From: Escherichia phage vB_Eco_T-01
Direction: 5' to 3' (one strand)
Sequence record: PQ438391.1
Length of the DNA: 64,000 bases
Positions 42,002 to 42,345 of the stretch are shown piece by piece. A program made the translations under genes and the position numbers. The notes below the pieces were generated by a model. It did not search any database. It had not been told where the DNA came from and saw only the letters and a program-made list of their open reading frames with translations. The stretch's first letter is position 1. Each line of letters begins with the position of its first letter.

Positions 42002-42046
42002 GAAACCGGGTCGCTACCGGTAAGTCGTCGGACTGATGTTCCCTGG

Positions 42047-42098
42047 GTAAGGACTGGCATTAACAAATCTTTACGATCGGTTAATGCCAGTCCTTACA
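42047..42098. repeat. 18-bp perfect inverted repeat (long hairpin)
   Basis: 'gtaaggactggcattaac' ... 'gttaatgccagtccttac' with 16-nt loop. Confidence 0.8.
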
Positions 42099-42311
42099 TC
42101 ACAGCAGAAACGGCGCACCGAATTATCGATTCGAGGAAATATCTTTGCCGTAAGCCGAGTAGCGTTTTTGACGGAACGTTCGGATATGGTCGAGATATGG
42201 CCTTTTAAAAATATTGAGTAGCGTCAACTGCTTAATAACCGGGTTCGAATCCCGGCGTTTCGTACAAACACTTGCCTTAGCAGGTGGAACCCCGACAAGG
42301 TTGCCGCAAGG

Positions 42312-42345
42312 CTTAGCCCCGACCGAAAGGTTGGGGCTTTTTAGT
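42312..42345 (+). repeat. 34-bp direct repeat, copy 1 (flanks internal-protein gene)
   Basis: 'cttagccccgaccgaaaggttggggctttttagt' identical to 42867-42900. Confidence 0.85.
42316..42345 (+). terminator. intrinsic terminator (copy 1)
   Basis: GCCCCGACCgaaaGGTTGGGGC + TTTTT. Confidence 0.85.

Follow-up and report, generated by a model that had tools for sequence, protein, structure and literature searches.

What is the structured, apparently non-coding DNA that follows the transfer RNA (tRNA) genes of Escherichia phage vB_Eco_T-01 (PQ438391.1)? In the window, the whole 64,000-nucleotide (nt) stretch analysed here, positions 42002-42345 form a 344-bp region that an initial annotation, made from the letters alone, had singled out for its inverted repeat, its tRNA-like module and its terminator. 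Our analysis finds that this stretch is very probably the 3′ end of a T4-type tRNA operon, made up of orthologues of the T4 genes rnaD and rnaC, a trailer and an intrinsic terminator, with rnaC predicted to fold as a four-way junction. Both RNAs are genes known in T4 since the 1970s; their recognition here is hence not a discovery, and the finding itself counts as already known. What we add is exact coordinates, a corrected acceptor pairing, a covariation-backed architecture in which two loops are proposed to kiss, and a wide distribution of rnaC. Neither a comparative fold of rnaC nor its wide distribution was found in the papers that we searched.

A blastn survey of 41990-42360 against 50,697 phage records matched 805 of them, nearly all from Tequatrovirus and its relatives; in 679 of these the match spans 80% or more of the query. 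Beneath the match, the records of T4 (NC_000866.4) and RB3 annotate rnaD (“small, stable RNA; species 2 RNA”) and rnaC (“species 1 RNA”). The region is 93-97% identical to these two phages, and a three-way alignment has a mean column identity of 94%. Base-by-base alignment and exact end matches map the T4 gene ends to 41998-42119 for rnaD and 42126-42264 for rnaC; the latter aligns over 139 of 139 nt, differs from T4 at two positions and is identical to the RB3 gene. The initial annotation had wondered whether the region makes stable small RNAs homologous to the two non-tRNA species of T4, and the exact alignment of both genes here settles that in its favour. In T4, too, rnaC stands between rnaD and the operon terminator, and the window's copy shows no material difference from the T4 gene. 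T4 RNAC is a stable RNA validated by Northern blot, and RNAC and RNAD are classed as late RNAs (PMC9697503).

The array just upstream (40612-41632, + strand; ARAGORN and Rfam) holds eleven tRNA genes in the order Gln, Leu, Gly, Pro, Ser, Thr, Met, Tyr, Asn, His, Arg, and is the T-even tRNA cluster. For T4, PMC2330249 describes transcription that crosses the whole tRNA cluster and stops after the species I gene (there citing Broida and Abelson 1985), and a primary transcript of ∼1.75 kb that gives rise to the eight tRNAs as well as to the species I and II RNAs. In the window, the operon ends as follows.

41998..42119, + strand: rnaD, orthologue of the T4 species 2 RNA, ∼122 nt (alignment to the annotated T4 and RB3 rnaD)
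42120..42125, + strand: A-rich 6-nt spacer GAATTA between rnaD and rnaC (alignment)
42126..42264, + strand: rnaC, orthologue of the T4 species 1 RNA, 139 nt (alignment; 154.9 bits with the rnaC covariance model R1, described below)
42265..42314, + strand: 3′ trailer of the operon transcript, with small hairpins, e.g. 42269-42286 (folding, conservation)
42315..42343, + strand: intrinsic terminator that ends the tRNA operon, with a G+C-rich stem of 10 bp, a GAAA loop and a T run (terminator scan)

The strong terminator proposed at the end of the region is indeed there, the scan placing it at 42315-42338 with 10 pairs, of which 7 are G-C, a 4-nt GAAA loop and then TTTTT. The trailer is conserved in Tequatro-, Mosig-, Gapriver- and Dhakavirus. 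Against dinucleotide shuffles, the fold z-scores are -6.1 for 41998-42119, -4.6 for 42126-42264 and -4.0 for 42265-42350. A T4 late-promoter motif, TATAAATA, stands at 42345-42352, directly after the terminator.

How, then, does rnaC fold? Representatives of its relatives were fetched and searches were then chained from divergent copies; alignment A4 holds 27 distinct homologues drawn from 11 or more phage genera, and R1 was built from 16 rnaC sequences. RNAalifold on 16 sequences returns a four-way junction of 44 pairs, 26 of them with compensatory change. Counted over A4, 93.7% of cells are paired and 33 of the 51 pairs have changed on both sides, values that none of 500 shuffles reaches, while slid controls are 35-49% paired. 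The initial annotation had named compensatory base changes across related phages as the thing to look for in a comparative alignment, and they are present in a region conserved in the 805 records. As predicted from this covariation, rnaC is a four-way junction that joins an acceptor/T-arm unit to two hairpins, here called P2 and P3.

42127..42133 (rnaC 2-8), + strand: 5′ strand of the acceptor-like stem, CGAUUCG (covariation)
42134..42203, + strand: arm P2, an irregular 70-nt hairpin with a purine-rich bulge, GUAG, 5 bp below the loop (19 of 20 variable pairs compensatory)
42168..42173, + strand: apical loop of P2, UUGACG, the proposed kissing partner (loop covariation)
42204..42211, + strand: conserved A-rich single-stranded linker, UUUAAAAA (alignment)
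42212..42237, + strand: arm P3, a 26-nt hairpin of 10 bp with the loop CGUCAA at 42222-42227 (9 of 10 stem pairs compensatory)
42239..42255, + strand: T arm, whose 5-bp stem carries a 7-nt loop, UUCGAAU (stem co-varies among G-C, U-A and A-U)
42256..42262 (rnaC 131-137), + strand: 3′ strand of the acceptor-like stem, CGUUUCG (covariation)

The T arm, CCGGG-TTCGAAT-CCCGG, is thus where the initial annotation put it; the acceptor-like stem that was said to close it stood only in part. Its 3′ strand was correctly placed, but the conserved partner, by covariation, is 42127-42133 at the 5′ end of rnaC and not 42172-42178. The latter (CGGAACG) can pair with 42256-42262 (CGTTTCG) in this sequence through six Watson-Crick pairs and one G.U, and is actually the 3′ strand of the P2 apical helix. 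The pairing between the two segments has no compensatory changes, falls below all 500 shuffles on every measure, and has its G.U turned into A.C in 10 of 16 homologues; we rejected it. We also dismissed a 7-nt complementarity between the rnaC 5′ strand (42128-42134) and the T loop (42245-42251), which arises because TTCGAA is palindromic and disappears in phages whose T loop differs.

The terminal stem has seven positions, and its central two are U.U mismatches in 25 of the 27 sequences. Its third pair is A-U in the T4 group and G-C in all others, and in Tegunavirus the two mismatches have become U-A and C-G, giving a perfect 7-bp helix. The ends of this helix coincide with the T4-annotated RNA ends, leaving overhangs of 1 nt at the 5′ side and 2 nt at the 3′ side. 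The 3′ strand abuts the T stem without a gap, in tRNA fashion, and P3 is separated from the T arm by 1 nt. Since a stem formed by the RNA's own ends sits flush with the T stem, the tRNA-like part of rnaC would be an acceptor/T-arm unit. Beyond the stem come U, A and a genome-encoded CAA; at this place (42264-42267), CA(A/G) follows rnaC in 21 of 21 homologues whatever lies downstream, and the preceding base varies among A, U and C. Such a pattern suggests that the 3′ end carries a constrained signal for processing or repair, and not an encoded CCA. The spacer 5′ of every rnaC copy is short and in most is A-rich, with an AAYWA equivalent in most other genera. Arm P2 evolves differently: its sequence has been wholly replaced, with its length kept, in Gelderland-, Karam- and Marfavirus phages and some Kanagawa- and Moonvirus phages (an unrelated arm is seen in Melville, KaAlpha, PEi26, Kosakonia 305, NM4.3, Ursula, F48 and EI). 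These lineages still retain the loop, the purine-rich bulge five pairs beneath it and a total length of 138-142 nt.

Why should the P2 loop survive when its arm is replaced? Read in reverse complement, the apical loop UUGACG (42168-42173) matches the P3 loop CGUCAA (42222-42227) exactly, and the resulting loop-loop pairing is intact in all 27 sequences (162 of 162 cells pair). The 12 loop positions have seen only two changes, both double and in unrelated lineages, and no one-sided change: C-G became U-A in Tegunavirus (UUGAUG with CAUCAA), and A-U became G-C in Marfavirus (UUGGCG with CGCCAA). From these alignments we infer that the P2 and P3 loops kiss, forming an intramolecular loop-loop helix, and their co-variation in two independent lineages indicates a putative kissing-loop lock. 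In a model of this body, the 10 bp of P3, the 6 bp of the kiss and the 5 bp of the P2 tip would stack into a single ∼21-bp helix. It would run alongside the lower portion of P2, which is about as long (∼18 bp and three internal loops), with a hinge at the bulge; the side-by-side helices would make a rigid body incapable of decoding. With its two hairpin loops fully complementary over 6 nt and co-varying, rnaC is analogous to the kissing complexes of ColE1 RNA I/RNA II and of human immunodeficiency virus (HIV) TAR-TAR*, but in rnaC both loops would lie within one molecule and their contact is a prediction. As a separate observation, the 9-mer GAGUAGCGU occurs twice in rnaC (42157-42165 and 42216-42224), once on the 5′ side of each of the hairpins P2 and P3, and the GUAGCG within it is complementary to CGCUAC (42013-42018) in the invariant loop of the first rnaD hairpin, which could be chance.

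Set beside known RNAs, rnaC is tRNA-like at one end only. Like tRNA (RF00005), it has a 7-bp terminal stem formed from its ends and continuous with a 5-bp T stem, a 7-nt UUCGAAU loop in most lineages, and a gene that sits in tRNA arrays. Unlike tRNA, it replaces the D arm and the anticodon arm (7-nt loop) with P2 (70 nt) and P3 (10 bp, 6-nt loop); its junction linkers are 0, 8, 1 and 0 nt, its terminal stem carries two U.U mismatches, and no CCA is encoded. Tools for tRNA detection do not call it: ARAGORN finds none in 41633-42345 and RF00005 has no match. The initial annotation was therefore right that this is no standard tRNA, as ARAGORN calls neither a tRNA nor a transfer-messenger RNA (tmRNA), and the best Rfam match, to tRNA-Sec, scores 16.6 bits against a gathering threshold of 47. 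A covariance-model search, which had been proposed as a check, returned no Rfam 15 family for rnaC or rnaD at either the gathering or the E ≤ 10 threshold. The tRNA-like domain of tmRNA, and the bacterial Y-RNA-like YrlA, resemble rnaC in joining a T arm and acceptor mimic to a non-decoding body. However, a tag reading frame is absent, and ARAGORN detects no tmRNA anywhere in the window. The YrlA model (RF02553) has no match in the region, its only score being a weak 17.7 bits at 41520-41582, over tRNA-His and tRNA-Arg. The 5′ and 3′ ends of YrlA form its Ro-binding stem, whereas those of rnaC make the acceptor-like stem.

How widely is rnaC found? With rnaC alone as query, blastn returned 750 records, of which 490 show an identity of 99% or more, and matches of 80-87% in other genera; across hundreds of Tequatroviruses the gene is 98-100% identical. 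Full-length copies scoring 92-157 bits with R1 occur in all the genera in which we list rnaC.

Tequatrovirus
Mosigvirus (RB69, gene unannotated)
Gaprivervirus (VR7)
Kanagawavirus (Entb_45, ZX14, PEi26, Kosakonia 305)
Moonvirus (Moon, NM4.3)
Karamvirus (Pet-CM3-4, KaAlpha)
Winklervirus (Virsaitis27, LC53)
Gelderlandvirus (Melville)
Tegunavirus (fHe-Yen9-01, TG1)
Marfavirus (F48, EI)
Unclassified Citrobacter phage Ursula

The gene is unannotated in the RefSeq record of RB69 and in most others. In many Tequatroviruses and in F48, EI and NM4.3 it is covered by a probably spurious coding sequence (CDS) labelled “hypothetical protein”. We give coordinates for the RB69 copy and for others in the loci that were fetched.

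NC_004928 ∼74159-74297, - strand: unannotated rnaC of RB69 (24160-24298 of the fetched locus L210)
L202 1516-1653: further rnaC copy
L208 416-553: further rnaC copy
L205 342-515: further rnaC copy

In Moon, Pet-CM3-4, KaAlpha, Melville, Virsaitis27 and LC53, rnaC lies inside the tRNA array, a few nt from a tRNA on each side, and some Kanagawavirus phages also carry it between two tRNAs with spacers of a few nt. The Tegunavirus and Marfavirus loci that were fetched retain it with no tRNA gene annotated nearby.

Searches beyond these phages yielded little else. Starting blastn from the Melville, F48 and fHe-Yen9-01 copies reached no lineage outside the list; the more distant T4-like phages (RB49, RB43, KVP40, Aeromonas and Acinetobacter phages and cyanophages) stood outside the homologue survey. 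At blastn sensitivity, 5,426 complete E. coli genomes contained no match, nor did a loop-plus-T-arm pattern find a homologue in 185,579 representative bacterial and archaeal genomes, where two rhizobial matches failed R1 and were read as chance. Pattern scans of IMG/VR returned mostly chance matches, of which the covariance model retained only ∼20 true loci; one 23.6-bit match (L078) was judged to have been seeded by the search pattern itself. A metagenome scan gave ten true matches, all of Tequatrovirus or Marfavirus type, with no new loop variants. Judged on these searches, rnaC is a widespread, mostly unannotated RNA family that is absent from Rfam.

Its neighbour rnaD occurs in fewer genera (Tequatro-, Mosig-, Gapriver- and Dhakavirus), which makes rnaC and rnaD separable modules. 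The conserved sequence of rnaD begins at ∼42000, and its 5′ limit of 41998 is taken from the T4 annotation. Compared with T4, the 5′ 48 nt and the 3′ 25 nt are near-identical and the central stem is variable. Among the 14 distinct sequences of alignment A5, 95.8% of cells are paired and 9 of 29 pairs are compensatory, with none of 500 shuffles as high. The parts of rnaD are these.

42005..42021, + strand: hairpin H1, with a stem of 5 bp and a 7-nt loop, GUCGCUA, that does not vary (alignment A5)
42024..42118, + strand: long irregular hairpin, with an invariant closing stem (42024-42030 with 42111-42118)
42047..42097, + strand: apical stem, a perfect 18-bp inverted repeat (hypervariable among phages)

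The basal pair of H1 changes from A-U to G-C in three sequences, and its remaining pairs and loop are invariant in all 14. The interior of the long hairpin (42031-42046 and 42098-42110) is conserved; the 5′ hairpin, the closing stem and this interior are common to T4 and the phage studied here. The perfect 18-bp inverted repeat of the initial annotation is real (42047-42064 with 42080-42097, extending to 23 nt at 91% complementarity), although the stem is imperfect or unrelated elsewhere. Its perfect form stems from a difference of 2 nt to ECO78, RB3 and T4, and other phages have three unrelated apex sequences, each still able to form a hairpin. T4 rnaD has a fold z-score of only -0.83 against the -6.1 found here, and the strength of the latter is due to the perfect 18-bp helix. 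The alignment makes this hairpin a lineage-specific form of a freely exchangeable tip, the least conserved part of the region.

Whereas rnaD starts 1-2 nt after tRNA-Arg in T4 and RB3, here an open reading frame (ORF) of 116 amino acids (aa) intervenes, a difference of context that does not speak against orthology. This ORF (41651-42001, + strand) lies between tRNA-Arg, which ends at 41632, and rnaD, and has no counterpart there in T4 or RB3. Its TAA stop (41999-42001) overlaps the annotated 5′ end of rnaD. The same arrangement occurs in ECO78, where the ORF is labelled “endonuclease”, a label for which we found no support; it matches phrog_3355 (function unassigned). As the ORF separates the two genes, 3′ processing of tRNA-Arg cannot release rnaD in this lineage, and rnaD here may derive from a 3′ untranslated region.

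What might such RNAs do? In the mechanism that we propose, rnaC would be cut from the polycistronic precursor by the tRNA machinery, since its ends form an acceptor/T-arm unit, with 5′ release by RNase P or by an endonuclease at the A-rich spacer and a 3′ end made by exonucleolytic trimming; processing of this kind would explain both the stability of rnaC and its flush placement between tRNAs elsewhere. Its kissing-loop body would keep it rigid and non-decoding. Mature rnaC might then act in trans as a tRNA mimic that occupies or titrates a host or phage tRNA-binding protein, with rnaD exerting an independent, host-dependent effect; we offer this tentatively, as a reading that may well prove wrong. 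The setting would plausibly be phage-host conflict. More tentative still is the extension to the whole family, in which a tRNA handle on a kissing-locked body would serve as decoy or adaptor for a tRNA-binding host factor, such as a defence nuclease directed at tRNA or an enzyme of processing or modification, and rnaD would be a separate host-range determinant, as hinted by the polymorphism described below. Phage tRNAs neutralise PARIS and retron defence (PMC11464382; bioRxiv 10.1101/2023.03.15.532788), and these are precedents for a counter-defence role of the tRNA cluster; a tRNA-mimic decoy, if true, would extend this emerging view of phage tRNA clusters. For rnaD, the T4-like phage BW-1 acquired a single convergent single-nucleotide polymorphism (SNP) in rnaD in 3 of 3 lines adapting to ECOR34, with its virulence index rising from 0.17 to 0.98 (PMC12685909). 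This SNP is the sole functional hint, and it points to a host-dependent role.

Several observations weigh against tRNA mimicry by a kissing-locked rnaC. The T loop is UGCAUGC or UGCAUC(C) in Enterobacter-type Kanagawavirus phages (Entb_45, ZX14) and in Winklervirus, so that strict T-loop mimicry cannot be essential. No CCA is encoded, CA(A/G) standing after a discriminator-like base in all homologues. The kiss rests on two independent covariation events, and the loop complementarity could in principle reflect intermolecular pairing or a symmetric DNA site, although both elements coincide exactly with the loops of hairpins that have co-varying stems. The gene can also be missing: the 2.6-kb locus of JS10 (Dhakavirus) has no R1 match, and at its positions 1199-1430 rnaD is joined almost directly to the trailer and terminator. 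This looks like a clean natural deletion of rnaC, and JS10 could serve as a ready rnaC-less comparison phage. Deletions of the T4 tRNA region are reportedly viable on laboratory hosts. Finally, the roles of RNAC and RNAD have been called unknown in 2010 (PMC3014915), 2022 (PMC9697503) and 2025 (PMC12685909), and on the function of either gene the literature searched up to 2025 offers only that word.

The main rival to the tRNA-mimic reading is that rnaC and rnaD are cis-acting parts of the operon, structured spacers that aid tRNA processing or shield the 3′ end, their stability being a by-product. Both RNAs do come last in the tRNA operon, shortly ahead of its terminator, rnaC lies flush between tRNAs in other genera, and according to PMC2330249 one precursor yields the tRNAs together with both RNAs. 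Yet the loop sequences, the position of the bulge and the total length of rnaC are conserved far past the needs of a spacer, the two RNAs occur independently of one another, and rnaC is kept in Tegunavirus and Marfavirus with no annotated tRNA nearby, which we count in favour of a function in trans; we consider the cis-acting explanation unlikely. That one or both are base-pairing regulatory small RNAs (sRNAs) acting on host or phage mRNAs is distinctly improbable. They are small, abundant and expressed late (PMC9697503), and a point mutation in the conserved interior of rnaD alters host-specific virulence (PMC12685909), but in rnaC the two best-conserved loops are paired to one another, processed RNAs would presumably lose the terminator U-tail that Hfq-dependent sRNAs use, the E. 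coli genomes gave no match at blastn sensitivity, and no target is known (PMC3014915).

The degenerate tRNA that the initial annotation kept as an option fares worse. A canonical T arm adjoining an acceptor-type strand, and the weak tRNA-Sec match of 16.6 bits, are what a decaying pseudogene would leave. Its non-tRNA parts, however, are conserved and co-vary, with compensatory change in the non-tRNA arms across at least 11 genera contradicting decay; 490 records are at least 99% identical over rnaC, and the stable species has been detected in T4 (PMC9697503). We regard this explanation as highly improbable. That the region encodes small proteins is the least credible proposal, and very nearly dismissed by the data: ORFs of 45 and 49 aa do lie on the + strand and CDS features overlap the homologous region in many records (e.g. 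F48, EI and NM4.3), but the initial annotation had correctly seen no ORF of 60 aa or more on either strand of 42002-42345 (the longest are 49, 45 and 34 aa), substitutions are paired and compensatory in a way that fits RNA helices rather than codons, and the curated T4 and RB3 records annotate RNAs here.

These are textbook genes of T4, and the comparative fold makes the ∼fifty-year-old question of their function easier to test, as it gives experimental handles in the acceptor-like stem with its U.U mismatches, the kissing loops with their two natural variants, and the conserved bulge.

Two neighbourhoods of the operon deserve mention. Downstream lie the paralogous neighbouring ORFs 42389-42862 (157 aa) and 42984-43547 (187 aa), both of which match phrog_2280 (function unassigned). 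Within the tRNA array, a 114-bp non-coding spacer (41363-41476) separates tRNA-Asn from tRNA-His, and ECO78 has a similarly long unannotated gap between the same two genes. The spacer contains TGTGACAACTGTCACA at 41367-41382, a perfect TGTGA-N6-TCACA palindrome of the CRP-site type.

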